Shown here piece by piece: positions 63-11,593 of a DNA stretch of 11,593 nucleotides. The notes under the pieces are model-generated. The model was not told where the DNA came from. It searched no databases and saw nothing but the letters and a program-made list of their open reading frames with translations. The stretch lies in the UHGV virus genome UHGV-1887975. One strand, given 5' to 3'. Source of the DNA: a virus. The position numbers and the translations under genes were made by a program. Position 1 is the stretch's first letter, and every line of letters starts with the position of its first letter.

Positions 63-92
63 TTGAATATGATTGCTATTTGCATTTAAAAT
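63..92 (+). promoter_or_regulatory. tonB: Host tonB promoter: -35 TTGAAT (63-68), -10 TAAAAT (87-92), overlapping an AT-rich Fur-box-like segment (about 65-83, GAATATGATTGCTATTTGC)
   Basis: The hexamers are read directly, with an 18-nt spacer. I recognise the surrounding sequence as the E. coli tonB upstream region. The left flank joined to the right flank across the 13-bp core restores a contiguous tonB 5' region. Confidence 0.6.
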
Positions 93-128
93 CGAGACCT
101 GGTTTTTCTACTGAAATGATTATGACTT

Positions 129-141
129 CAATGACCCTTGA
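129..141. repeat. attL core, CAATGACCCTTGA
   Basis: It is identical to 11514-11526. It contains the tonB-derived ATG at 131-133, which here opens only a 4-codon mini-ORF (ATG ACC CTT GAA TAA, 131-145). Confidence 0.75.
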
Positions 142-148
142 ATAAAGT

Positions 149-156
149 CTATTCGG
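149..156. repeat. attP' arm inverted repeat CTATTCGG, partner of 11498-11505
   Basis: It is the perfect reverse complement of CCGAATAG at 11498-11505. The two arms lie 7 and 8 nt from the core, so they are symmetric about TGA|CCC in the core. Confidence 0.65.
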
Positions 157-258
157 TTTTCTTTAGATGTTCGCCTCACATAATCTTCAAGTGATGTTCC
201 TTACATCTCCCTAGAGCGTTAAGATAGTTAACTGATTGAGTTTTCAGGGTATGAAAGG

Positions 259-924
259 ATGAGCAACACTACTGATTGGGGAAGCATGATAGCCAACATA
301 GTTATGGCTACTACCGCTGTCTGGGCTGCATTCAAAGCTAATGACTGGTTTAAAACCAAGCGTCTTGAGAGTGCTGAAAACTTCTATAAAGAAGTACACA
401 ATCTCCATAAACGTTACTATTCAGCTATCCAATACGTTGAGGATTCAAGAAGAATATTTGATAGTCAGTATGGGTTGCATTCGCCAATATCTGAACCTAA
501 AGACAAGTCATTGCAATGGGAGGTTAAATCGAACTCTTACAAAATCATCGCTGAACTAGATTATCTGGCATCGTCACTACAAATGATGGATGCAATGGGT
601 AACAAACTTAGCCCTAAATCGGCTTCACTGGTTAGTGATATGATGGAAGCACATGGACGATTCTGTAATGATGTGATGAACTTCAATGACTCAGTTTGGA
701 AGGTTATAAGGGCAGGTATAACTGAAGAGAACATCCCACATACGCGAGGCTATGTGAACGGCGATTACATGGCTATCCTTACCAGTATGGATGAACCTGT
801 AAGAATATCTTTTAAGTTAAAAGAAATCAGTTTTAAAGATTTTTACTTACATGAAACTACTATGCAGTCAGTAATAACGAGGCTGAAATCGCTTATCGCC
901 AGAACAGGTAAAAACAGGACATAA
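259..924 (+). CDS. Hypothetical membrane-anchored protein, 221 aa, with one N-terminal TM helix (about residues 9-25) and a helical soluble domain
   Basis: It is a long ORF and the first gene inside attL, on the same strand as the tonB promoter. The hydrophobic segment is MIANIVMATTAVWAAF. The SD (GAAAGG) abuts the ATG, so the exact start is uncertain. Confidence 0.7.
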   Translation: MSNTTDWGSMIANIVMATTAVWAAFKANDWFKTKRLESAENFYKEVHNLHKRYYSAIQYVEDSRRIFDSQYGLHSPISEPKDKSLQWEVKSNSYKIIAELDYLASSLQMMDAMGNKLSPKSASLVSDMMEAHGRFCNDVMNFNDSVWKVIRAGITEENIPHTRGYVNGDYMAILTSMDEPVRISFKLKEISFKDFYLHETTMQSVITRLKSLIARTGKNRT

Positions 925-1112
925 ACAGGTTAGTACCTATGCAATTTAACGGTATTTTTCCAAGTATCTATGCAATCCTACACAGATTCTATACAGTATC
1001 GACATAGTTTCCTTTTGGTATAACTTATTGAAATATATAAAGAATCTGTGAAGCCCCTTTTCAGGGTAAACTGTATCGTGTTAGTCGTCCCTCTCTCGAC
1101 TCCTAGAAAAGT

Positions 1113-1142
1113 GCTATATACAGGGCTATATAATGCTATATA
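1113..1142. repeat. Three tandem GCTATATA units (1113-1120, 1125-1132, 1135-1142), including a perfect TATAAT at 1129-1134
   Basis: Read directly, with a period of 10-12 bp. This could be a promoter cluster or an easily melted AT-rich element. Confidence 0.5.
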
Positions 1143-2591
1143 GATAGTTGGTCACATGGTGTAACTATCAAACTACTTAACAGTTTCCTACGTGAAAGTT
1201 AGAAAGTGATAGTTATAGTTACCTTGTCAAATCTTCGTAGTCCATTCTTAAAAAATCACTTACAGACACCTTAATATCTATACAGATTTCATGTAGAACA
1301 CGATTAGTGCGTAGAAGAGTCATTATGTTAAAAACGAACTGTATACGTATCAGTACTGATTTATAAGGGTTTTGTGTATTTGAAGATAAGAGGCTATACA
1401 GCACCTTGAGAGCATGTCTTCTAAGTCATTGATACATAAGGTCACAGAAGTTTGTGTCTGTTACAGAGAAAACTGGATAGGACTTCACAGAACTACAAAA
1501 TGTTACAGCTATTGATAGGTGAAATCTTCTTGATAGATGCCTTGAAGTGTGGTGAAGGTTTCTTGAGGTGGAGCTAAACAGATGCTATGAAGAAAGTCAA
1601 TAGTTGGTTATAGATATTTTAACTGCTTTTGCAAAGGGGGTGCTGTATCGTGAATCTGGGGTACTTAACAGCCATCAATCATGAGGTAGATTCTACCGAA
1701 TCAACTGTGTAGATATTTTTTAAGATTATCGGTGAAGGGGGAATGCAGAGGGGGGTACTACGATTTTTATAAAAATTTTCAGAAGCCAAATAACTACTGT
1801 GTATATTTTGCACAATCCTGCCAAACCTCATAGAAAGCTCTGTAGCGAGTTTTAACCCCATTTTTAGGGGTAACCTGTAGGGATGTACCACCCACCTTAA
1901 AATAAAGGGGTAAAATCGCTTAGAATGCGTTACAGAGCGTCTGAGAAGCTATATTCACAGATTTTACTAAAGTCTCAGACTTCTAAGTAGTCTTTTTAAC
2001 GGGAGGGTTCTTTCTCATGTATCACCCTCTCTTCCCGCTAAGTAAGCTACACAGACCTAGAGAACATGCCTTCACAGCATCTATATCAGGTCAGATTTAG
2101 AGGGTTTTGATAGAATTTTCAAAGGTACTTGACAGATAACTATGAAGTTGTTAGGAAGAATTGTTTAACGGGAGGAAAGATACGATATAACCCGAAGGGA
2201 AAGTATCATCTTAACAGTGATTGTAAGAGATACCTGAAAAGCTCCTCTTAACAGAACTACCAAGAAGAGAGGGAACGATAAGACCAGAGGTAGTGACCTG
2301 TTAAATAGTTCGTTTCAAAGCTCTTAAGAGTCTGTTAAGTAAGGGCTATGTGAACAATCTTACCATTTTGTCAATGCTCTTGTCTTTGACCTAAATCAAT
2401 AAAATGTATCGTTTGATATGGTTTTAAGCAAGATGGCTAAAAATCTTTTTAGAGGGGCGCTTCGCTTGTGTCACTATGTTCTTTCTCTCCCTGTCTAAGA
2501 GGGGGGTTACAGAGGTCTTTCAAGTCTCAATAGACAAACCGAGGAACGCAGGAAACCGAGGGAAGAAAAACTATTGTGATTACCCTGAACA

Positions 2592-2625
2592 AGGTCTGTA
2601 AAGGTCGTTTAAGAGGTCGGTTAAG
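2592..2625. repeat. Three tandem iteron-like units: AGGTCTGTAA, AGGTCGTTTAAG, AGGTCGGTTAAG
   Basis: Read directly. The units are contiguous with a period of 10-12 bp. Confidence 0.6.
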
Positions 2626-2749
2626 AAAGGAGCTTCCCTCTCTGGGGTTGTCGCTCTTCTCTCGCTTGGTGGATTGATTAGGGGGTATGTTATACAAGCC
2701 CAACTAAGAAGACCTCTGAAGCTTACCTGTGAAGAAGCTGAACAGCTAT

Positions 2750-2802
2750 TATATTGGGTGATTACAACTCATTGAAAAATAAGCATTTTTAGAAATCACT
2801 GT
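2750..2802. repeat. 53-bp direct repeat, copy 1
   Basis: 49 of 53 positions match 2844-2896, at an offset of 94 bp. Confidence 0.85.
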
Positions 2803-2843
2803 TAAGGTTGCAGAGTTGTCTGTGAGGAGACTTGTCTGCTCTC

Positions 2844-2896
2844 TATATTGGGTGGTTACAACTTATTGAAAAATAAGAACTTTTAGAAATCACTGT
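2844..2896. repeat. 53-bp direct repeat, copy 2
   Basis: 49 of 53 positions match 2750-2802. Confidence 0.85.
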
Positions 2897-2998
2897 CAGA
2901 GAGGTGAATACTTGATAGATACAGCTTTCCGGTTCTGTCAAGTCATTTTTTAATAGATAGCATAAAATGCTAAAGATACCCCTATACCATCACGTACA

Positions 2999-3026
2999 GG
3001 GGGTTTTGAAGGGGGTTTAACGGGGG
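2999..3026 (+). repeat. Three G5 tracts at 11-12-nt spacing: AGGGGGTTTTGA, AGGGGGTTTAAC, GGGGG
   Basis: G5 runs at 2999-3003, 3011-3015 and 3022-3026. The third run overlaps the last codons of the minus-strand small ORF. Confidence 0.6.
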
Positions 3027-3193
3027 TCTGTGTGGTCATTATCCTTAAGGTCAAGCGTCCATGTACGACCGAACAGTTTAAAGACAACAAGCACTCTGAC
3101 GAGGACGTAGCGAAGTAGCAGGCCTGCAATAAGTCCAATACCTCCACCAGCCCATACATCAGGTGACCCCAATTCTGGAGGGAGATTTACCAT
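3017..3193 (-). CDS. Small single-pass membrane protein, 58 aa (MVNLPPELGSPDVWAGGGIGLIAGLLLRYVLVRVLVVFKLFGRTWTLDLKDNDHTDPR)
   Basis: The ATG at 3193 is preceded by AAGGA with a 6-nt spacer on the minus strand. The protein has a clear hydrophobic helix, and the segment is locally GC-richer than its surroundings. The track's longer version (to 3235) begins at a TTG with no SD. Confidence 0.4.
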   Translation of the reverse strand: MVNLPPELGSPDVWAGGGIGLIAGLLLRYVLVRVLVVFKLFGRTWTLDLKDNDHTDPR

Positions 3194-3410
3194 TAAATTT
3201 CCTTGTAAGACGCTCTCAATCGCATTCTGACACAAAAAAGTACCTGACCTTATAGTTGACCTGAAGAGGCCATTTAACTCGTTACAGAGCGATTGAAGAG
3301 GTCTGTGTGCAATGCAATAACCATGTGACCACTCTCATAGCCACGCCTCATATTTTACTCTCCCCATAGAACCATTATACCACAGATGTTAATGAAATGT
3401 TAAAAAGTGC

Positions 3411-3439
3411 TTGACATTAGTCTTTGAAAATGCTAGTAT
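3411..3439 (+). promoter_or_regulatory. Strong sigma70 promoter for the rightward operon: TTGACA (3411-3416), 17-nt spacer, extended -10 TGcTAGTAT (3431-3439)
   Basis: Hexamers and spacing are read directly. It is followed by two TTAACA boxes (3450-3455, 3461-3466) one helical turn apart, in an operator position. Confidence 0.65.
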
Positions 3440-3487
3440 TGTATATAAGTTAACAGAGGATTAACAATTATAAGGACTAGCTTATGA

Positions 3488-4042
3488 ATGAACGACAGAG
3501 AATTTAGAGCGATGCTTCAGGCATCAAGAGAACGCAACAAGCACAACTCCTACGCTTACACAAACAACCCCACCAGCTACGAACTACCAGCCTTTTCCAA
3601 ATCCGAACGTAAAAGCATTGAAGCGGTCATTCGTAGCATTACGCCACGAGGCAGATATATGCCAACACGCAAAACAACAAAGAATAACTTAAAAACTTTC
3701 TTGATGAGTTTTGACAGCTACGAACAATTACCGTCACGAATTGAAGATGTAATTATCGGCACTTGTCGCAGCTTTGGAAGGGATAACTATCACCGGAAAG
3801 TTTTCTATTTGCTTCGAAGCCTTGATGAGATTAACTCAAGCACAGTGACGAGCCATCTTCAAAGACAAGCAACCAGACTTAGCCACGAGCTACCATCTGA
3901 TAAGTATTGCGCTAATTTAACCACCATTTGCAATAAAGTTATCGAGACAATCAATCATCATGTTGGGGTTGGTAATATCAGCCTTACGACCAGTGAGCCA
4001 GACTTTGAATTTGACGTATACGCACAAGCAGAGGAATTTTAA
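3488..4042 (+). CDS. Hypothetical protein, 184 aa
   Basis: It is the first ORF downstream of the 3411 promoter. Its stop lies 1 nt before the next start. The SD is weak or distant. Confidence 0.7.
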   Translation: MNDREFRAMLQASRERNKHNSYAYTNNPTSYELPAFSKSERKSIEAVIRSITPRGRYMPTRKTTKNNLKTFLMSFDSYEQLPSRIEDVIIGTCRSFGRDNYHRKVFYLLRSLDEINSSTVTSHLQRQATRLSHELPSDKYCANLTTICNKVIETINHHVGVGNISLTTSEPDFEFDVYAQAEEF

Positions 4043-4043
4043 A

Positions 4044-4325
4044 ATGGGAAATAAACACACACTAACCAGAGTTACAAAGACAGCCTTTGAAGAACTTAAC
4101 CGAATCAAAAACATTACAGGTCTGCCACACTCAGCAGTGATGAAGCTTGCAATTAACCGTGATATTAACGAGCAGGATTTGCTTAATAGTCGTTTAGAGG
4201 CAGCAAGACACCATATCAGGATTAAGCAAGATGACCTTGATAGTCTGAAATCTTTAAATGCTTTTGGACTGGATTTAGCAAGGTTACTAAGTATCAAAAT
4301 TCACAAATTAGCGATGGAGGTTTAA
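4044..4325 (+). CDS. Putative ribbon-helix-helix (CopG/Arc-like) DNA-binding protein, 93 aa
   Basis: The ATG at 4044 is preceded by GAGGA with an 8-nt spacer. The N-terminus HTLTRVTKTAFEELNRIKNITGLPHSAVMKLAINR follows the strand-helix-turn-helix pattern of CopG-type RHH proteins. The track's 3960 start overlaps the upstream gene. Confidence 0.7.
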   Translation: MGNKHTLTRVTKTAFEELNRIKNITGLPHSAVMKLAINRDINEQDLLNSRLEAARHHIRIKQDDLDSLKSLNAFGLDLARLLSIKIHKLAMEV

Positions 4326-4711
4326 TGTATGACTTTTATAAACATCGTGACCATTTGGTAAGATTTGACGGTAAAGTCTGGAAAGACGTAACACAAACCA
4401 ATAAGCCCAAGTTTACCCACCAGCAATTAGCCTCAAGATTTGATATCTGGGCTGAAGCACAAAAAGATAATGGTGATTTCGAGTTTATCAGAGGTTTTGA
4501 TTATGCTTACGAAAGCGACCTTAAAGACGCCATTGAATTAATGGAGAACTTCAACTCTATTAAAAATAGTGACAAGCACAAAGCCAACGGTAACAGATAC
4601 GATAAAGATTTAATCATTGATGCAATCACCAAAGGACAATCACAAAGTTATATTTCTGAGAAATACGGCTTATCACGTAGTCAATACTACAAGATTAAAG
4701 CGTCTGTGTAA
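4325..4711 (+). CDS. Hypothetical protein with a C-terminal helix-turn-helix, 128 aa
   Basis: TAATG overlap with the upstream gene and a GGAGG SD. The C-terminus ITKGQSQSYISEKYGLSRSQYYKIK resembles resolvase/terminase-small-type HTH motifs. Confidence 0.75.
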   Translation: MYDFYKHRDHLVRFDGKVWKDVTQTNKPKFTHQQLASRFDIWAEAQKDNGDFEFIRGFDYAYESDLKDAIELMENFNSIKNSDKHKANGNRYDKDLIIDAITKGQSQSYISEKYGLSRSQYYKIKASV

Positions 4712-4849
4712 GTCTGTGAGAATGAGTGAGACTCAAAGATGAGCTACCCTATTACTAAGGTGTCTCACTCCCTCTGTAACCCGCATGGTTACTGGCCTCA
4801 GAATGGCTATTTTGGCAGATTTAAGATGTGTTTTTATAGGATTTTAAAA

Positions 4850-5173
4850 ATGAATAATTTCCCACTACAGATTTTTATTGATACCGACACCGCCATGATG
4901 ATTCAGGCTTTCACTGATGTAGGTGTTAGCATTGACTTTGATAAGTTGTTAGAGTTAATGGCTGATNATNCNGANANCATCTNTGACTTTATTCACTCGG
5001 TGGAGTTTAACGAGCCTCGAATGATGTTACCAATTACAGACAGTAATATGAAAAGATTGGTTATTGAGCAAACGAACAAATACAGTATTTCCCCAGAGCA
5101 ATTTTTGAAAGGTGCTGTGACAATCCTGTACAGCGATAATATTTTGGTTACGGATTCCGTGAGGGTTCACTAA
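4850..5173 (+). CDS. Hypothetical protein, 107 aa, containing 6 ambiguous bases
   Basis: The ORF is in the frame of the track's 4739..5173 entry. The ATG at 4850 (MNNFPLQ...) is preferred because 4739-4849 holds two hairpins and encodes an atypical Cys/Trp/His-rich peptide. The start remains uncertain. Confidence 0.6.
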   Translation: MNNFPLQIFIDTDTAMMIQAFTDVGVSIDFDKLLELMADXXXXIXDFIHSVEFNEPRMMLPITDSNMKRLVIEQTNKYSISPEQFLKGAVTILYSDNILVTDSVRVH

Positions 5174-5250
5174 TGGGCTTAATAATTGCTTGGACGTTGC
5201 TTGGCTTATTTGTTGGTTGCTGGGTGGGTAACACAGTAAATAAGAATTGA
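5173..5250 (+). CDS. Tiny hydrophobic peptide, 25 aa (MGLIIAWTLLGLFVGCWVGNTVNKN)
   Basis: TAATG start/stop overlap with the upstream gene. GAGGG SD at 5161-5165 with a 7-nt spacer. The sequence is TM-like. It falls below the ORF-track length cut-off. Confidence 0.45.
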   Translation: MGLIIAWTLLGLFVGCWVGNTVNKN

Positions 5251-5273
5251 TGTTATCAATCTGTTAAAAGCTG

Positions 5274-5302
5274 TTGACAAATAACCTTAAGCATGAGATG
5301 AT
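5274..5302 (+). promoter_or_regulatory. Candidate sigma70 promoter: TTGACA (5274-5279), 17-nt spacer, GATGAT (5297-5302)
   Basis: The -35 is perfect but the -10 is mediocre. It lies in a 495-nt intergenic gap. Confidence 0.3.
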
Positions 5303-5308
5303 GGTAAT

Positions 5309-5496
5309 AGGGGGCAACTCTTCCTGAATTAAACTATTAATCATTCTACATCAATGATAGTTATTCTGAGTTGGAAAGGTGCAATGCTTTTCGTCATGGC
5401 CTATTTAGCCCACACTAGATAGGCTATCTCAAAAAGTCTTTGTTTATTCATTGAATCCTTTACAGATTGCCCTAATCATGAGTTAGGGCGTTTTTT
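5309..5496 (+). ncRNA. Candidate sRNA of about 190 nt, between the 5274 promoter and the 5469-5496 terminator
   Basis: This rests only on the promoter-terminator pairing in an intergenic region. It contains an internal stem GCCTAT/ATAGGC and a 22-aa hydrophobic mini-ORF (5354-5422) that has no SD. Confidence 0.25.
5469..5496 (+). terminator. Rho-independent terminator: GCCCTAA / TTAGGGC stem, 7-nt loop, then GTTTTTT
   Basis: The 7-bp perfect stem (5469-5475 / 5483-5489) and the T-run (5491-5496) are read directly. Confidence 0.65.
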
Positions 5497-5667
5497 AAGA
5501 GTTTTTAAAGAAATTTCTTCACCAGCCCTTTATAGCGTTTTAGTTATCTAGGGCTTTTTCAGCTTTTAAAAAGCATACTTGGCAAACGCTTTTAAGTCTC
5601 TTCTAAGTTCGTAGGCTGTCAGGTGTGCTTTTTAAAAACTGAATATTACTTAGAAGAGGAAAAAACA

Positions 5668-6378
5668 ATGACAAACGATTTATATATTAACGGCAGAAAG
5701 ATTGATAGCTTCGGGGACTGGTCACCACAGGGTGAACATCCGCTACATACTATTCAGCGTAAAGAACACGATGAAAGAATTAAGCTTGAGCAAGAGTTAA
5801 AGATGTCACCAAAGGTAATTTCCTTTGTGTCTCCTGAGCCTCAAGAAATGCCTGATGTATGCAAAACTGAAGCACTATTTAATCTTGAGCGTGAATATTA
5901 CCCACTGCTAAAAGCACAGCGTATTAAACTAGATGACGCTTACAGCAAAGTTACCCTGATGCAATCAGCTATTGAGCCATCAGAATTTGAGATTCAGGAT
6001 GAATTGTCACAGAAACCATTTGTCTATTACAAATATGAAGACAATGATGGTTTTGGTACTTTTCCTGAGAATATCCCAGACGTGATTAATAATCTTCCTG
6101 ATGGATATCGAATTGTGAAGATGGTTAAAGCTTCAAGAGGTGCTGGTCAGTTTATTTTCATGACCGATAGGAGCGATGAAGAACTCTGTGAAATTGCTAA
6201 ACAGAACATCTTAGCATCACGTAACAAGCAACTTGAAAATGTTAAGTTGTATCTCTCAAGAGAGCTTCAGGCTATGAAAGAGCTTGTTAGTGAATATGAA
6301 TCACAGAAGAAGATTGCTATGCAGGCTGATATTGAGCAGTTAGTGAAGATTTCTCAGAAATATGCAAAGGCACTTTAA
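5668..6378 (+). CDS. Hypothetical protein, 236 aa, with a coiled-coil-like C-terminus
   Basis: The ATG at 5668 is preceded by AGAGGA with a 7-nt spacer. The track's 5623 start is a GTG inside the GTGTGCT motif. Confidence 0.75.
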   Translation: MTNDLYINGRKIDSFGDWSPQGEHPLHTIQRKEHDERIKLEQELKMSPKVISFVSPEPQEMPDVCKTEALFNLEREYYPLLKAQRIKLDDAYSKVTLMQSAIEPSEFEIQDELSQKPFVYYKYEDNDGFGTFPENIPDVINNLPDGYRIVKMVKASRGAGQFIFMTDRSDEELCEIAKQNILASRNKQLENVKLYLSRELQAMKELVSEYESQKKIAMQADIEQLVKISQKYAKAL

Positions 6379-6402
6379 CTATGAATTAAAAGGAGGTGGT
6401 GA

Positions 6403-6606
6403 ATGATTGATTTAACAGAACGCTATGAGCTTATTAAAGCAATTAGTGAACGATTGAAAGAACAACCCAACAAACCAAAACGAATCAAATCATCCACCTC
6501 TAAGCAAAAGAATAGAATCAGAAGAATCGCTAAATGGTGTCTTGATAAATTACCAAGTGATTGTCAGATTGTCGGTGAAGATGGTAATTATTATCTGGTT
6601 AGGTAA
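6403..6606 (+). CDS. Small basic hypothetical protein, 67 aa
   Basis: Strong SD (AAAGGAGGTGGTGA then ATG). Lys/Arg-rich centre. Followed by a terminator. Confidence 0.7.
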   Translation: MIDLTERYELIKAISERLKEQPNKPKRIKSSTSKQKNRIRRIAKWCLDKLPSDCQIVGEDGNYYLVR

Positions 6607-6631
6607 AAAGATTGGTTGGGTAAAAATCAAC

Positions 6632-6672
6632 GGGAGAGATTATCGAGTGACATCGGTAGCTCTCCCTTTTTT
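6632..6672 (+). terminator. Rho-independent terminator: GGGAGAG / CTCTCCC stem followed by TTTTTT
   Basis: Stem arms at 6632-6638 and 6660-6666, and the T-run at 6667-6672, are read directly. Confidence 0.7.
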
Positions 6673-6700
6673 GTATATGAGATAGTCTTCTATCGAATCC

Positions 6701-6802
6701 TGTGTGCTACGTGATGATTCGGATAAGAATTATCCTCATGAAATCTGTAAAACTAATACCCACACTGAAAAATAGAATTTACGTACAACACGCTTAAAGA
6801 GG
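6701..6802 (+). promoter_or_regulatory. Conserved GTGTGCT-box intergenic element, copy A, upstream of the tape-measure gene
   Basis: It shares GTGTGCTACGTGA (6702-6714) and the block TACCCACACTGAAAAATAGAATTTACGTACAACACGCTTAAAGAGG (6757-6802) with copy B. The two ends can pair (6701-6714 with 6779-6792, with 2 internal mismatches). Confidence 0.55.
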
Positions 6803-6812
6803 TGAAACATGA

Positions 6813-8936
6813 ATGAGCAAATTCACAGTTGATAGTTTTATCGTTGAGCTAGGCTTCAATGAAAACGTTATTAAGGGACTGCAAAGAGTTGAAAAGGCAG
6901 CTTTGCAGTCAGCACAAAGAATTGAAAAGAACCTAAATAAAGGTTTCAGGATTAATACAAAGCAGCTTGATAGTAATTTAACGGCTTCTTTAGGGCAGCT
7001 TGAAAGGAAGTTTAATAAGGCCTTTGACAAGATTGAACAGAGAGCAAGAAATACTAAAGCTTTCCAGTTTACCACCAGATTTAATGACACTGTTAATCCT
7101 CCAAAACAACCAAGACAGCCACGAATTAGCGGAAACAGAGCAATCACAGCAGCTTACTCAGCGAATATGAGCAAGCTAAAAGGCCTTAACCCAATTGTCG
7201 AGAAATACATTAAGAGTCAGTTTTACGGGCTATCTGCTAAAGCCGGGTCAATGGATTCTTCAAAATTCAATGAGAAGTTAGCTCAGTTAAACGCTTCAGT
7301 CAGAGAAGCAATTGCTAAAGCCAGAGGTCATACATCCACCAGCATTAATGGTGACAGAGCAGCTAATAGTCTTGATAACCTGTCTTCAGCAGCAGTTAAA
7401 ACAGCAGGTGCATTTATCTCAATGCAGGCTGTATTAGCCAGTTATCAGAAGATTATGGAAATTGGTTTACAGCGTGCAAGTGCTGAACGTTCAATTGATT
7501 TCGTATTTGATAAAGATGCAGGTCAGGTAAAAGAGTTCACAAAGTCATTAGCTCAAACAACGGGTTTAGATATCGCTGAACTGCAATCACAGTTTGCTGG
7601 TTTTGGTGCTTCAGCTAAAGAGTCTATGGGTATTCAAGGTTCTGAAGAACTTTTTAAAAATATGATTGGCTATGCTCGTCTGATGGGGAGAAGTGAAGAA
7701 GAGATTAAGCGAGCACTGACAGCATTATCACAGATGGCTGGTAAGGGTCAGATTATGGCTGAAGAGCTTAAGGGGCAACTGGCTGAAGCTGTTCCTGGTA
7801 TGGTTCAGGTATTCGCTAAAGCAACCGGAAAGACTGAACAGGAATTATTTGATGCCATGAAGAAGGGGGCTTTAAAATCTGCCGATACTCTTCAGAAGGT
7901 CACTCAGGAACTGAATAAACAAATCACCGCTAAAGGTGGCTGGAAAGCCATTTCAGAAAGTACTCAGGCACAACTAGGGAACTTGAAAAACTCTTGGAAT
8001 ACCACGCTTGATAGTATCTTCAGAGGTTCTGAAAATGGTCTGCAAGATTTTACACGAAGCCTAACAACGCTTTTAAACGCTCTTGGTGGAAGTGGTAAAA
8101 GTCTTGGTGAATCTCTTGGTAGTCTCATGACTTCTATGTCACATGGTGTCGATAGTCTGACCGATATTAGTTACAAGGTGCGAGCGTTCTTTGATGAGGT
8201 GACATTAGCTTACCGTTCACTAAATGACACTCAGAGGAAAATTGTTGATGGTTTATCTGATGGGTTAATTGATGGTTTGAAGATGCTTGCTGTGGCTGTT
8301 ACTGCTCAAAAGGCTGCAAATGTAGCTGGAGGCTTGTTAAACCTTGCAAATGCTGTTACTTCATTCGGTGATGCTGTTAATAAAGCTAAAGCTGGCAAGG
8401 CTGGTTCTTCAGGTGGTGCGCTAAGTAAAGTCGGTAGAGTTGTCCTTTATGCTGAGTTGGTAAACTTTGCTCTTGATAATTTAAACCCTGAAGCAGCTAA
8501 GAATCCGAACTTACACCAATCAGGTATTGGTACAGAAACAAACTTCAATCCTGAATACAAAGGCGATTCTAAACCAAACCAAATTAATGAGGGGTGGGCT
8601 AAGATTGGTAGTTCTATCGCTGACTGGTTTAATGGTGCAGCTAATAAAATTGCTAACTTACAAGAACCGATGAATAACTTCGTAAATAACACACAATCAA
8701 CTCCACCAGCTATCGACACGGTGAATATCAATGCTCAATTAGCTATGGCTGTATCAGAGTTAGGAAGAAAGGTTGATGCTTTAACAGTAGAAGCTCGGAA
8801 GCCTTTATCAGTTAATATCAAAGGTGAAGCAATTGTTAGGCCGGATGAGCCATCTTTCTTTAATTTCAATCAATCAGCTAATGACCAGTTCACGCAGGAT
8901 ATGCTCTTAAGTTCAAGCTATCCAGAGGAAGAATGA
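6813..8936 (+). CDS. Tail tape measure-like protein, 707 aa
   Basis: The central segment ALSQMAGKGQIMAEELKGQLAEAVPGMVQVFAKATGKTEQELFDAMKKGALKSAD matches the conserved tape-measure core motif known from lambda H/TP901-type TMPs. The protein is long, helical and Ala/Gly/Ser-rich. GAGGTG SD with an 8-nt spacer. Confidence 0.85.
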   Translation: MSKFTVDSFIVELGFNENVIKGLQRVEKAALQSAQRIEKNLNKGFRINTKQLDSNLTASLGQLERKFNKAFDKIEQRARNTKAFQFTTRFNDTVNPPKQPRQPRISGNRAITAAYSANMSKLKGLNPIVEKYIKSQFYGLSAKAGSMDSSKFNEKLAQLNASVREAIAKARGHTSTSINGDRAANSLDNLSSAAVKTAGAFISMQAVLASYQKIMEIGLQRASAERSIDFVFDKDAGQVKEFTKSLAQTTGLDIAELQSQFAGFGASAKESMGIQGSEELFKNMIGYARLMGRSEEEIKRALTALSQMAGKGQIMAEELKGQLAEAVPGMVQVFAKATGKTEQELFDAMKKGALKSADTLQKVTQELNKQITAKGGWKAISESTQAQLGNLKNSWNTTLDSIFRGSENGLQDFTRSLTTLLNALGGSGKSLGESLGSLMTSMSHGVDSLTDISYKVRAFFDEVTLAYRSLNDTQRKIVDGLSDGLIDGLKMLAVAVTAQKAANVAGGLLNLANAVTSFGDAVNKAKAGKAGSSGGALSKVGRVVLYAELVNFALDNLNPEAAKNPNLHQSGIGTETNFNPEYKGDSKPNQINEGWAKIGSSIADWFNGAANKIANLQEPMNNFVNNTQSTPPAIDTVNINAQLAMAVSELGRKVDALTVEARKPLSVNIKGEAIVRPDEPSFFNFNQSANDQFTQDMLLSSSYPEEE

Positions 8937-8950
8937 TTTCTTATATATAT

Positions 8951-9026
8951 CCGTGTGCTACGTGAAATCTTCTGAACGGATATACCCACTAAAAATTATT
9001 TTTTACGTAGCTCACGCTTAACAGAG
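8951..9026 (+). promoter_or_regulatory. Conserved GTGTGCT-box intergenic element, copy B, upstream of the 9102 gene
   Basis: GTGTGCTACGTGA at 8953-8965 and TACCCACTAAAAATTATTTTTTACGTAGCTCACGCTTAACAGAG at 8983-9026. The ends form a 16-bp stem with one mismatch (8952-8967 with 9001-9016). Confidence 0.55.
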
Positions 9027-9101
9027 AAAATACTTATATATCAAAGGTTTGGTTAAAAATGATTAAAATACACTAAGCCTTTGAAATCAAAGGAGAATTT
9101 A

Positions 9102-9872
9102 ATGATTTACACTAATCAGCTTCGTTACAGTGGCAAAGATGGTGTTTACTTCCATCTACAAGGCCAACCAGATAATTTCTTGTCACTATCAGCAACTGAG
9201 AACATGGAATATGACAGCCCTATGATGGTGACCACTCAAAATATGCAATCAGGGCAGACTGTAACAGATAATGTAATGCGTTCACCAAGAACTATTTCAA
9301 TCAGTGGTGTGGTTGTGGTTGGTGAATCCGGTAGTATCCTTATCTCAAGAGATAATAAGCTGGTGGAAAACTTCATAGACACTCTTGAAAACTGGCGTGA
9401 CCAGAAGCAAATTATCTCAGTTGTCTGTAAAGATGGTATTAAGATTGACGACTCAATTATTACAAGCTTTAAAGCCTCTAAAGATGTTGGTATTTCAAAC
9501 GGCCTAAGAATCCAGCTAACTTTTCAGGAAATCAACTTTAAAGCTATCGTAGGGCAAACTGATATTTCGACTGCTACTGGCAAGACCGCTACCACGAATG
9601 ATGGTGGTGCTACTTCTAAGAAGAATACAGGGAATACTACGACAAGTCTTGGAAGCCCTATGCTGACCTGTAAAGAGCTTTTTAGCTATTCGGCAAGTAA
9701 GTTATCAGATGAAGCGCTAAAAGCCCGTGTAACGTGCTCTAAGAGCGTTAGCGTTAAAAATGGTGAGAGCACCTTCACAGCCTCAGCTAATGAGCAAGCT
9801 TCAAAGGTGCTTAAGTCGGGTAATGCTTTACGGAAGTACTCTGTGAATCCGAATAAGAAGGGCACTTATTGA
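9102..9872 (+). CDS. Hypothetical tail-associated protein, 256 aa, named by position downstream of the TMP; the C-terminal half is Thr/Ser/Gly-rich
   Basis: The ATG at 9102 is preceded by AAGGAG with a 6-nt spacer. The track's 9081 start is a TTG. The function is inferred only from synteny with the TMP. Confidence 0.7.
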
Positions 9873-9881
9873 GACATAAAA

Positions 9882-9899
9882 AGGGGCTTCATAGCCCCT
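9882..9899 (-). terminator. Hairpin AGGGGCT / AGCCCCT between convergent genes, followed by a T-run on the minus strand; terminator for the integrase gene
   Basis: 7-bp perfect stem and 4-nt loop. The minus strand reads AGGGGCTATGAAGCCCCTTTTTAT. Confidence 0.65.
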
Positions 9900-9904
9900 G
9901 AAAA

Positions 9905-11425
9905 TTACAGTTGATAAGCGTCAATATCCAGTAGCTCTTTATCAGCAATTTCAAAGATTGGTGACCCATCATTTAGCGGTAACGGGTTTGTAGGTATGGT
10001 TATTTCAGTGTCGTTCTGTAGCGTTACAGTTACCGAATCCTTACCCAATGTCAGCCCCTTTAGATGCTTGGACAAAATCAACTGACACTCGACACGACCC
10101 GCTTTAGTTGTCAGGTCAATATCTTTAAGCTGGGGTAGTTCCTTATCAGTGAGTGAAGCCTTACGCCTCATGTTATCAATCGTGGTCTGTAGCTCTGTGC
10201 GCTTCTGGTTCAGTTCCTTAAGCTGAATTTTTAGTTCATCAATATCATCCATCTCAAGAAGTAGGGCGGTAGCTTTCTTGATTCTGGTTGTGACAATTTC
10301 AACCTCATGCTGTAGAGATGCAATCTTCCCCTCTGCTTCTCCATCATTCCCCACGTCAATCATCCCCAGAAAATTATCAATCATCCACTTATCAAACGGT
10401 TTACGCTTCAACGGAGGAACATCACAGCGACCATCAAGATGGTTATTGCACCGATAAACGCCCTGATACTTATTCTTAGTCCCTGTAGGGTGAACACTAG
10501 CCCCGCACTGACACCTAAACAGACCTTTGAAGATGTTAATCGTTAATGGATTATCACTTGCAGGTGTACGGCCTATACGGTTCTTACCAAGAATCTCTTG
10601 AGCTTTATTGAACGTTGAAGCATCTATAGCGGCTTCGTAGTAGTTCGGTATAGCGGGGCGGTCATTACGTTGTGATGCTGGTAACGTGCCTATCGTTGTC
10701 TCTGACCTTAAGATGGTGCGTACAGAGTGAACACTAAACCCGTTAGCATCTTTACGGCGACTAAACGACTTTATACCGTTGCTTTGAAGGTGACGGGCGA
10801 TGTTATGCAGACTTTCACCACTTAGCAGCAGCTTGAAAATCAGTCTTACAGTCTCAGCGTGTTCATTGAGTTTAAAAGTATCGGGGTCAATCCATCCGGG
10901 AACCATCTTTGTTAAACGTTGTTCACCAGCAAGGGCAAGTTTTGCACGTTGCTCCCATTTCTGAGAAACACGGAAAGACTTCTGCTTAGATTCCTGATGC
11001 GCTATGTAGGCTTTGACACGCTGGATGATTGAGATTCCTAAATCATCGGCTAAAGCATCCTTTGTGTAGATAAGACCATCTTGTAGCGTGTGAATCTCTA
11101 ACCCGTTGCCTAAGATGCGATTCATCAAGGCTTCTGTTTCAAGGTGTTCTAAGCGGCCTATACGGTCGATACTCTCAACAAGCAAAATCGTACCTTCTGG
11201 AAACTCCCCAGACTCAATACGGGCTAACATGTCACCAAACTGACCAGTAAGATGCTTACCTTTGTAACCGGATAGGCCTTCATCACTGAAAGACGCTACT
11301 ACTTGAGCATCGCTATTCTTCTTCAGCCACTGCTTGAACAGGTCGTTTTGTCGTCTGGTTGAATCTGCACCTTCAGCGCCTTGTATAGCTGAACTGTACC
11401 GAAGGTATGTAATTACGCTCCTCAT
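9905..11425 (-). CDS. Large serine recombinase (integrase), 506 aa
   Basis: N-terminal catalytic motif YLRYSSAIQ with downstream VESIDRIGR. Cys-rich zinc-ribbon segment CQCGASVHPTGTKNKYQGVYRCNNHLDGRC. C-terminal coiled coil. The gene lies adjacent to attR. Confidence 0.9.
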   Translation of the reverse strand: MRSVITYLRYSSAIQGAEGADSTRRQNDLFKQWLKKNSDAQVVASFSDEGLSGYKGKHLTGQFGDMLARIESGEFPEGTILLVESIDRIGRLEHLETEALMNRILGNGLEIHTLQDGLIYTKDALADDLGISIIQRVKAYIAHQESKQKSFRVSQKWEQRAKLALAGEQRLTKMVPGWIDPDTFKLNEHAETVRLIFKLLLSGESLHNIARHLQSNGIKSFSRRKDANGFSVHSVRTILRSETTIGTLPASQRNDRPAIPNYYEAAIDASTFNKAQEILGKNRIGRTPASDNPLTINIFKGLFRCQCGASVHPTGTKNKYQGVYRCNNHLDGRCDVPPLKRKPFDKWMIDNFLGMIDVGNDGEAEGKIASLQHEVEIVTTRIKKATALLLEMDDIDELKIQLKELNQKRTELQTTIDNMRRKASLTDKELPQLKDIDLTTKAGRVECQLILSKHLKGLTLGKDSVTVTLQNDTEITIPTNPLPLNDGSPIFEIADKELLDIDAYQL

Positions 11426-11467
11426 GGTGATAAACTCCCATGCAATTGATTCTCATTTAAAGATAAG

Positions 11468-11495
11468 CTTATAACCATTATGGCTAATGCTACAA
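11468..11495 (-). promoter_or_regulatory. Candidate integrase promoter on the minus strand: TTGTAG (-35, plus-strand coordinates 11490-11495), 16-nt spacer, TATAAG (-10, 11468-11473)
   Basis: Hexamers read from the reverse complement. It would give a leader of about 36 nt before the int ATG. Confidence 0.35.
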
Positions 11496-11496
11496 T
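11469..11496 (+). promoter_or_regulatory. Candidate island-borne outward promoter facing tonB: TTATAA (11469-11474), 16-nt spacer, extended -10 TGcTACAAT (11488-11496)
   Basis: Read directly. GCTACAAT recurs at 11505-11512. This is the only promoter-like sequence between the integrase gene and the tonB ATG. Confidence 0.35.
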
Positions 11497-11497
11497 G

Positions 11498-11505
11498 CCG
11501 AATAG
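11498..11505. repeat. attP arm inverted repeat CCGAATAG, partner of 149-156
   Basis: It is the perfect reverse complement of 149-156 and lies 8 nt from the core. Confidence 0.65.
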
Positions 11506-11513
11506 CTACAATA

Positions 11514-11526
11514 CAATGACCCTTGA
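11514..11526. repeat. attR core, CAATGACCCTTGA
   Basis: It is identical to 129-141 and contains the functional tonB ATG (11516-11518). Confidence 0.75.
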
Positions 11527-11593
11527 TTTACCTCGCCGCTTCCCCTGGCCGACGTTACTTTCGGTCTGCATTCATGGTGCTGTTGTGGCGGGG
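11516..11593 (+). CDS. tonB: TonB energy-transducer, 5' partial (first 26 codons; continues beyond the window)
   Basis: The translation MTLDLPRRFPWPTLLSVCIHGAVVAG matches the E. coli TonB N-terminus as I remember it. The reading frame is open to the window edge. Confidence 0.85.
   Translation, partial: MTLDLPRRFPWPTLLSVCIHGAVVAG

Follow-up and report, generated by a model that had tools for sequence, protein, structure and literature searches.

A serine-recombinase island that exchanges the upstream region of tonB and very probably brings the gene a promoter

Several well-known mobile elements integrate into protein-coding sequence, and the comparisons made here with A118, SPbeta, skin, SCCmec, SpyCIM1, phage 21 and e14 are drawn from general knowledge. 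A118/comK, SPbeta/spsM, skin/sigK and SCCmec-Ccr/rlmH share an enzyme class (judged from domains), a dyad-symmetric attP, a target within coding sequence and an in-principle reversible integration with the locus described here, which is the junction between tonB and an island carrying its own recombinase gene (int) in the UHGV virus genome UHGV-1887975, a stretch of 11,593 nucleotides (hereafter the window, meaning the whole stretch analysed, to which all coordinates refer). In those systems the target gene is split and inactive until excision, or its 3′ end is regenerated; at the tonB island, in contrast, it is the 5′ end that is regenerated (the start codon and ~3.7 codons, in a 13-bp core), and promoter, operator and leader are swapped while the open reading frame (ORF) stays whole. 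SpyCIM1 (Streptococcus pyogenes, mutL 5′ end) and other regulatory-switch prophages also place an element between a gene and its promoter and restore control on excision, as would be the case here; SpyCIM1, however, silences mutL while integrated, whereas carrier tonB is conserved intact, arguing that the gene stays on. The hallmark of regulatory switching or active lysogeny, a gene that is inactive while the element is integrated, does not appear at this locus, where the ORF is reconstituted and, as read from the genomes, intact in carriers that include lineages with a truncated recombinase. Phage 21, e14 (icd) and tRNA-targeting integrases resemble the island in that the element's copy of the target end keeps the product unchanged, but these are tyrosine integrases that duplicate a 3′ end and leave the promoter untouched, whereas the tonB island uses a serine recombinase and duplicates a 5′ end. 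This is an unusual form of site-specific integration, in which the target's 5′ end and start codon are regenerated by the element, and the element must therefore bring a working promoter.

All high-affinity uptake of iron, haem and vitamin B12 in Escherichia coli draws its energy from TonB. The protein is also an entry requirement for several phages, colicins and sideromycin antibiotics, and its expression is, by the textbook account, Fur-regulated. Alignment of occupied with empty sites shows that a serine-recombinase insertion at tonB codon 2 has, as far as sequence can tell, reciprocally exchanged the upstream regions and kept the reading frame. The window is ordered kch/yciI, island, tonB, and the features on which this conclusion depends are as follows:

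63-92, plus strand: native tonB promoter TTGAAT-18 nt-TAAAAT, the only promoter-like site in 1-1200 (score 12.5)
65-83: native Fur-box match GAATATGATTGCTATTTGC, 12/19 against the Fur consensus
129-141: attL copy of the 13-bp core CAATGACCCTTGA, a direct repeat of the attR core
142-11513: island-specific DNA, ~11.4 kb, 35-45% GC
149-156: outer inverted repeat CTATTCGG of the attP right arm, partner of CCGAATAG at 11498-11505
9905-11425, minus strand: large serine recombinase (int), 506 amino acids (aa), with Resolvase, Recombinase and Zn_ribbon_recom domains
11498-11519: attP left arm, CCGAATAG (11498-11505) and CTACAATACAATGA, holding a second GCTACAAT (11505-11512) and a third TACAAT (11512-11517)
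11514-11526: attR copy of the core CAATGACCCTTGA, including the tonB ATG (11516-11518)
11516-11593, plus strand: the first 26 codons of tonB (MTLDLPRRFPW...), the window ending inside the gene

Positions 1-141 are identical to the K-12 yciI–tonB intergenic region except for two bases near 13-14, the match extending through ATGACCCTTGA and diverging thereafter. At the right end, which reads ...TTATGGCTAATGCTACAATGCCGAATAGCTACAATACAATGACCCTTGATTTACCTCGC..., identity to E. coli tonB begins at CAATG, and the tonB segment of the window is matched in 5423 of 5426 complete E. coli genomes; all sequence 5′ of 11514 is island DNA, the K-12 promoter region aligning at 1-141 instead. Island-free genomes match the window as two pieces (207 nt in total, up to 100% identity) with zero bases gained or lost, and because both flanks fit these genomes without extra bases, the insertion is a clean, site-specific one. 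The native tonB promoter and its Fur box stay at attL, 11.4 kb from tonB in carriers, which bears out an earlier note on this DNA in its claims that tonB is separated from its own promoter and preceded by island DNA. Its further claim, that excision reverses the arrangement, also holds up on paper: since attL-left plus core plus attR-right equals the empty site, precise excision would give back the native arrangement. Where that note spoke of an intact tonB at attR, the full ORF is indeed present in carriers, but the junction lies in codon 2, so that the start codon itself is island-borne and not merely the DNA upstream of it.

We rebuilt attP by joining the island right end, the core and the island left end. 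The product is an imperfect dyad about a central dinucleotide (16/26 positions symmetric, centre 11519|11520; p=0.026 vs shuffles), which, with the 13-bp core shared with attB and an insertion without added bases, agrees with the attP of ~50 bp expected for a large serine recombinase. The crossover dinucleotide can be inferred to be the AC at 11519-11520, within tonB codon 2, and a crossover there would make the start codon, leader and promoter region of carrier tonB island DNA; the island-derived part of the carrier gene itself is the ATG and the first base of codon 2. The enzyme that would catalyse this exchange has matches to PF00239 (8e-16), PF07508 (6e-16) and PF13408 (2e-6) and to the integrase family phrog_95 (2e-77), and begins with MRSVITYLRYSS, which contains the motif YLRYSS; a Y-x-R-x-S resolvase domain, recombinase and zinc-ribbon domains and a length within the ~450-700 aa range place it among the large serine recombinases. 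No circular attP junction was found among the matches listed, in the metagenome scan or in the viral contig scan, and no recombination directionality factor was identified for the island.

Three sequences show changes in the att core or first codons, namely ATGCCC (Thr2Pro) in strain 90-3040 (L003 1267-1275), ATGACCATTGAT in L093 and an additional codon ATGACCTTTGATGATTTA in L127, and these changes would probably impair later excision. Separately, contigs L021, L023 and L026 terminate 117-118 nt upstream of int, ~27 nt into tonB and beyond the att core; contig ends at this place suggest that the assembly graph branches there, whether because occupied and empty sites were mixed, because excised forms were present or because the sample contained more than one host.

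The int–tonB junction occurs in 229 of 5426 complete E. coli genomes (~4%), where it is chromosomal every time and 74-100% identical to the window, in carriers that come from varied hosts; only 11 of the complete E. coli genomes have the whole window island. Shigella sonnei assemblies share this junction, as does a Citrobacter genome whose tonB is of the Citrobacter type; the recombinase, used as a query against the genome collection, returned one locus only, in Citrobacter. Recombinases of 57-75% identity divergently adjoin tonB in other enterobacterial contigs, and a degenerate junction pattern run against metagenomes and viral contigs gave mostly chance matches, with at least 24 metagenome contigs holding attR junctions after filtering. 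This separation of tonB from the textbook promoter, brought about in ~4% of complete E. coli genomes by an element that provides the start codon, is firmly established and seems not to have been described before; searches of the full-text literature yielded no description of a tonB-targeting recombinase, island or int–tonB junction.

Carrier tonB is consistently whole. The full 239-aa ORF is intact in genomes with the same junction (L001 included), and 9 of 9 carriers sampled, with six alleles among them, encode a full-length TonB of 238-239 aa that agrees with the K-12 protein at 235-239 of 239 residues; two carriers each gave one match to the tonB segment of the window. In O111:H- 110512 (L004 883-1173) and 90-3040 (L003 856-1176) the recombinase is reduced to ~290-320 nt beside an IS3-family element and tonB is intact, and islands with a recombinase truncated in this way presumably cannot excise. 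Many O111:H8 genomes give an identical 93.7% junction match, and the shortest high-identity junction among the matches listed keeps ~235 nt of island DNA beside tonB. Given intact tonB beside shortened islands, we infer that a working promoter lies no more than ~240-380 bp ahead of the ATG, and consider it very probable that tonB is driven by an island-borne promoter in this interval.

To locate such a promoter, both strands were scanned with a sigma-70 weight matrix whose frequencies approximate those of published promoter compilations, so that its scores are relative only. An extended -10 consists of TG at -15/-14, then one base, then a TAnnnT hexamer near TATAAT, and makes a -35 dispensable; two elements on the plus strand have this pattern. 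The signals within the 90-bp int–tonB spacer and its edges are the following:

11428-11436, plus strand: TGaTAAACT, extended -10-like, hexamer 4/6, overlapping the int ribosome-binding region; predicted start ~11444
11445-11457: Fur-box-like palindrome ATTGATTCTCATT, matching the Fur core AATGATAATCATT at 11/13
11469-11474, plus strand: TTATAA, a weak -35 (3/6), 16 nt upstream of the TACAAT at 11491-11496
11480-11482, plus strand: upstream ATG in frame with tonB (MANATMPNSYNT-MTLD...), 12 codons ahead with no stop between
11488-11496, plus strand: TGcTACAAT (TGCTACAAT), extended -10, hexamer 5/6; predicted start ~11503
11492-11487, minus strand: TAGCAT, candidate int -10, with a -35 TTGTAT at 11516-11511; kept in every relative scanned
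11495-11497, plus strand: second in-frame upstream ATG

We hypothesize that tonB is not silenced, that sigma-70 signals in this spacer transcribe it following integration of the island by its large serine recombinase at an attachment site encoding the tonB start codon and first codons, and, tentatively, that the main promoter in this island is formed by TTATAA (11469-11474), 16 nt and TG-c-TACAAT (11488-11496), with a start near 11503. The earlier note had placed TGCTACAAT at 11488-11496 and GCTACAAT at 11505-11512, exactly where they lie, and its statement that the island DNA ahead of tonB carries an extended -10 overlapping a divergent int promoter candidate is borne out on both points: TGcTACAAT is the best plus-strand match in the window, scoring 9.8, at the 99.88th percentile of window positions, compared with 12.5 for the native promoter, and the minus-strand TAGCAT overlaps TACAAT back-to-back in a bidirectional layout. 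The back-to-back pair probably serves both genes, TACAAT reading toward tonB and TAGCAT toward int. The 23 kb of both window strands contain four extended -10 elements with a 5/6 hexamer, and such an element arises in 2.7% of shuffled 90-nt spacers; T-A-n-n-n-T is kept at this position in 20 of 24 distinct junctions (52 loci).

Several points count against this assignment. The consensus promoter scan called no promoter in 9800-11593, a silence explained by its requirement for a -35 match where the -35 is poor, and pattern matches underlie the promoter calls throughout. The final T of the hexamer is lost in 4 of the 24 junctions (TACCTC twice, TACATC and TACAAC), and the TACCTC type is represented by E. 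coli FG92-1 and at least six metagenome contigs, five of those six with diverged tonB sequence; TGcTACAAT therefore cannot be a family-wide solution. Conservation of TGCTA is also confounded by the overlapping minus-strand TAGCAT and the nearby attP arm. The predicted leader would be ~13 nt long, A/U-rich and without a Shine-Dalgarno sequence, and a 13-nt leader of this kind suits neither 30S nor leaderless-type initiation well.

Conservation does not settle the choice among candidates. Across 22 distinct close-clade sequences, 31.6% of the columns vary within the int codons, as against 13% at -91..-46, 8.7% at -45..-23 and 4.5% in the attP arm; by this measure the whole spacer is constrained, as expected of overlapping att, int and tonB signals, and the candidates are therefore not separable by conservation. 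Four further arrangements within the spacer were considered and rejected. The second GCTACAAT (11505-11512), which the earlier note had offered as a promoter, is part of the attP arm and is not conserved as a -10 (relatives have TTCAAT, TCAAAT, TTAAAT or TCAGAT); transcription from it would begin no earlier than the ATG. The third TACAAT (11512-11517), which overlaps the tonB ATG, fails likewise, being in the attP arm, not conserved as a -10 and starting at or past the ATG; as many as three 5/6 hexamers within 93 nt arise in 6.7% of shuffles. The pair TTGATT-18-TATAAC (11446-11475) ends in C or A, never T, in 24 of 24 variants, and the TTATAA within the TATAAC region fits better as the -35 of the TACAAT promoter. 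A leaderless mRNA from the ATG at 11480 would begin at an A just 5 nt past TATAAC, an unfavourable spacing, although the geometry is better in L024 (TACAAT-TTCAA-ATG).

The choice offered by the earlier note, between a promoter with a very short leader and silencing, omits the other extended -10, and it is possible, though on balance doubtful, that tonB is transcribed from TG-a-TAAACT (11428-11436), starting near 11444 with a Fur-like operator at +1, so that tonB, and perhaps int, would be iron- and Fur-responsive. An element of the form TG-n-TA-n-A-[C/A]-T, scoring 7.9-9.7 (at least the 99.5th percentile), occupies the equivalent position in every one of the 24 distinct junctions but L024, which has GGTACAAT there. 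No other plus-strand promoter-like element is present in as many as 23 of the 24; the 23 include variants without TACAAT at -25 and relatives whose recombinases are just 57-61% identical. Weighing on the other side, the TAAACT hexamer matches at just 4/6 and its -35 is poor, and its last two bases complement the int Shine-Dalgarno sequence, so that part of the conservation is due to int translation signals. The two promoters may also be active together.

A start at 11444 would give a leader of ~72 nt containing the AUGs at 11480 and 11495, which the earlier note had also left out, and some or all TonB may then have a 12- or 7-residue N-terminal extension; the out-of-frame ATG at 11487 within the same leader is a difficulty for this arrangement. 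An in-frame upstream ATG without an intervening stop is present in every relative examined (10 codons ahead, at -30, in L024), and any transcript start upstream of 11480 therefore still gives TonB. Annotations of carriers differ in the same respect: in several metagenome and Logan contigs automated gene callers choose a protein of 250-255 aa from the island ATG (L012, L013, L015, L017, L022 and L152), and RefSeq/NCBI annotation gives 239 aa (L001 and L153). The substitution pattern across the 12-codon extension gives no sign of coding constraint: third positions carry no excess of changes, and a second reading frame is frequently open as well. An N-terminal GFP–TonB fusion was reported to have normal TonB activity (PMC5147803), and a short N-terminal extension should therefore be tolerated. 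The GGGAG of int pairs with the anti-Shine-Dalgarno sequence at -6.8 kcal/mol, whereas the value is ~0 kcal/mol for the native tonB leader and for each of the three island ATGs. The native and island leaders are alike in having no Shine-Dalgarno sequence; tonB translation is therefore Shine-Dalgarno-independent in both contexts, and the island leader removes no ribosome-binding site. Folding gave similar start-codon accessibility for native and island leaders, with no discrimination between them.

Whether the arrangement is iron-responsive depends on the palindrome at 11445-11457, and the designation "Fur-independent" in the earlier note was an assumption that this conserved site calls into question. 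The palindrome matches the Fur core at 11/13 in the window and at 12/13, on one strand or the other, in both the commonest E. coli variant ATTGATTATCATT and a distant clade AATGATTATCAAT, at the same position and with diverged flanks; 12/13 is the match in most relatives. Core matches of 11/13 or better appear in 1% of shuffled spacers, and each 40-kb E. coli chromosome stretch examined has just three, the native tonB leader and the 11445-11457 site among them. Against the 19-mer consensus GATAATGATAATCATTATC the site matches at 12/19 (13/19 in relatives, 12/19 for the native box), but at least 12/19 is reached in 18% of shuffled spacers, and the palindrome also reads as a minus-strand int -10 (GAGAAT here, GATAAT in most relatives), so that the "Fur box" could simply be an int promoter element. 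It overlaps the predicted +1 of the 11428-11436 candidate and lies ~50 bp upstream of the start predicted for TGcTACAAT. We regard binding of Fur at 11445-11457 as conceivable, with the odds somewhat against it.

The spacer has a layout reminiscent of the promoter it displaces: TTGATT, set in a Fur-like palindrome and followed after 18 nt by an A/T-rich hexamer, resembles the native TTGAAT-18-TAAAAT with its overlapping Fur box, but the likeness is one of layout and short stretches, not a continuous homologous alignment, and the island TATAAC/TATAAA lacks the final T in every relative. In the native leader, 115-127 (AATGATTATGACT) is an 11/13 match to the Fur-box core, distinct from the box at 65-83.

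Transcription of tonB by read-through, with no dedicated promoter, is improbable. Such transcripts would originate in the plus-strand tape-measure/Dit-like operon, which ends at 9872, and continue antisense through int, or, in truncated islands, would originate in the IS3 elements. No plus-strand terminator-like site lies in 9872-11516, the hairpin at 9882-9899 having its T-run on the minus strand only, and the IS3 transposase gene is directed toward tonB in both IS-truncated islands examined, which agree with such a source; it would, however, require 1.6 kb of antisense transcription through int from structural genes that are probably silent without a helper phage, the two truncated islands without the upstream operon still have intact tonB, and a spacer more conserved than the int coding sequence suggests local signals. 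The IS3 truncation positions themselves differ between 90-3040 and O111:H- 110512. Some other source of tonB transcription takes what remains of our expectation after the two spacer promoters, read-through and silencing.

Silent or strongly under-expressed tonB in carriers, which would make integration a reversible TonB-minus phenotype with phage and colicin resistance at a cost in siderophore and B12 uptake, is favoured by the physical loss of the native promoter and the want of a canonical -35/-10 pair in the consensus scan and by nothing else, and is very unlikely in view of the full-length TonB near-identical to K-12 in all nine carriers, the single match to the tonB segment in each of two carriers, an insertion present in 4% of complete genomes and many hosts, pathogenic strains of the O111:H- 110512 type that keep tonB intact despite a truncated recombinase, the lesions that a dead gene would be expected to accumulate and the unfitness of TonB-less E. 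coli in iron-poor hosts. The silencing half of the choice posed by the earlier note hence finds little footing, while its short-leader promoter is plausible, and its link to phage resistance found no support, the structural genes of the island resembling those of Ounavirinae (FelixO1-like phages) and nothing being tied to TonB-dependent phages.

At the other end of the island, the exchange has left the native tonB promoter facing island DNA:

131-145: attL copy of the tonB ATG (131-133), opening the 4-codon ORF ATG ACC CTT GAA TAA (MTLE*)
259-924, plus strand: first island ORF, 221 aa, 114 nt past the MTLE* stop and on the same strand as the native tonB promoter

No terminator-like site separates the MTLE* stub from the ORF at 259-924, and the stranded promoter may have turned island cargo at attL iron-starvation-inducible. 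Homologues of the ORF 259-924 product in a homology search are enterobacterial hypothetical proteins only, and the product has no Pfam, PHROG or PADLOC match. It is a speculation that, in the excised circle, plus-strand spacer promoters would read across attP into this ORF, and the same speculation would explain why the island has plus-strand promoters at all.

The structural genes point to a particular group of phages. The Dit-like protein is ~69% identical to a Felixounavirus homologue and the tape measure 27-32% identical to its best matches, which lie in Ounavirinae (window 6813-9872). A non-coding stretch of ~130 nt (~1596-1730) is 73-75% identical to an unannotated Ounavirinae region situated close to the termini of several deposited phage records and, in phage SFPB, within a 1.6-kb gene-free gap. 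Like phage satellites (PICI, PLE, P4-like), the island is small (11.4 kb), bears an integrase and has a few phage-structural homologues and a stretch resembling a helper-type phage's non-coding region; unlike those families, its structural homologues are tail genes of virulent Ounavirinae, and Pfam and PHROGs gave no match to a primase-replicase, capsid or terminase small subunit, which are hallmarks of such satellites. On this resemblance the island may depend on FelixO1-like phages as their satellite or parasite, and no such satellite family was found in the literature searched.

Taken as one scheme, a reciprocal promoter swap by bidirectional, Fur-box-bearing serine-recombinase islands, maybe satellites of FelixO1-like phages, would make TonB iron-responsive under island control, possibly with a 12-residue extension, and would put attL cargo under an iron-starvation promoter; we think it unlikely that all of these parts hold together. 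The practical consequences attach to the promoter itself. Carriers include O111 enterohaemorrhagic strains and A0 34/86, which was deposited as a probiotic product, and an island promoter of different strength or iron response could set carriers apart from reference strains in host iron acquisition and in sensitivity to TonB-dependent colicins and phages and to siderophore-conjugated antibiotics. K-12 tonB promoter reporters and Fur regulon maps would, if this is true, not transfer to carriers.

The remaining island content is partly shared and partly variable. Small ORFs and the tape-measure, Dit-like and recombinase genes form a backbone common to the three full islands examined, and the attL-adjacent cargo varies among them. 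PADLOC gave zero matches for six island ORFs, and Rfam zero matches across the window. On the attL side, A0 34/86 has a minus-strand small serine recombinase (L019 9196-10239), and MRE162 has a plus-strand small serine recombinase, a DNA adenine methyltransferase and a helix-turn-helix protein (L020 8775-10862); a hairpin, CCTGTTAATAACAGG, lies just inside attL in both, and the window island is without it. The O111 island also has a gene with a DUF1076 domain. Positions 925-3487 form a gap of ~2.5 kb without a plus-strand ORF of at least 60 aa or an Rfam match, and its counterparts in related islands (L001 2674-5216 and L019 10239-12268) likewise have no annotation. Two direct copies of a 53-nt repeat, 92% identical to each other, lie in the gap at 2750-2802 and 2844-2896, along with several families of shorter repeats, and the gap could be a replication or packaging region. 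Six isolated N, at 4967, 4970, 4972, 4975, 4977 and 4983, give X residues in the translation of the ORF at 4739-5173.

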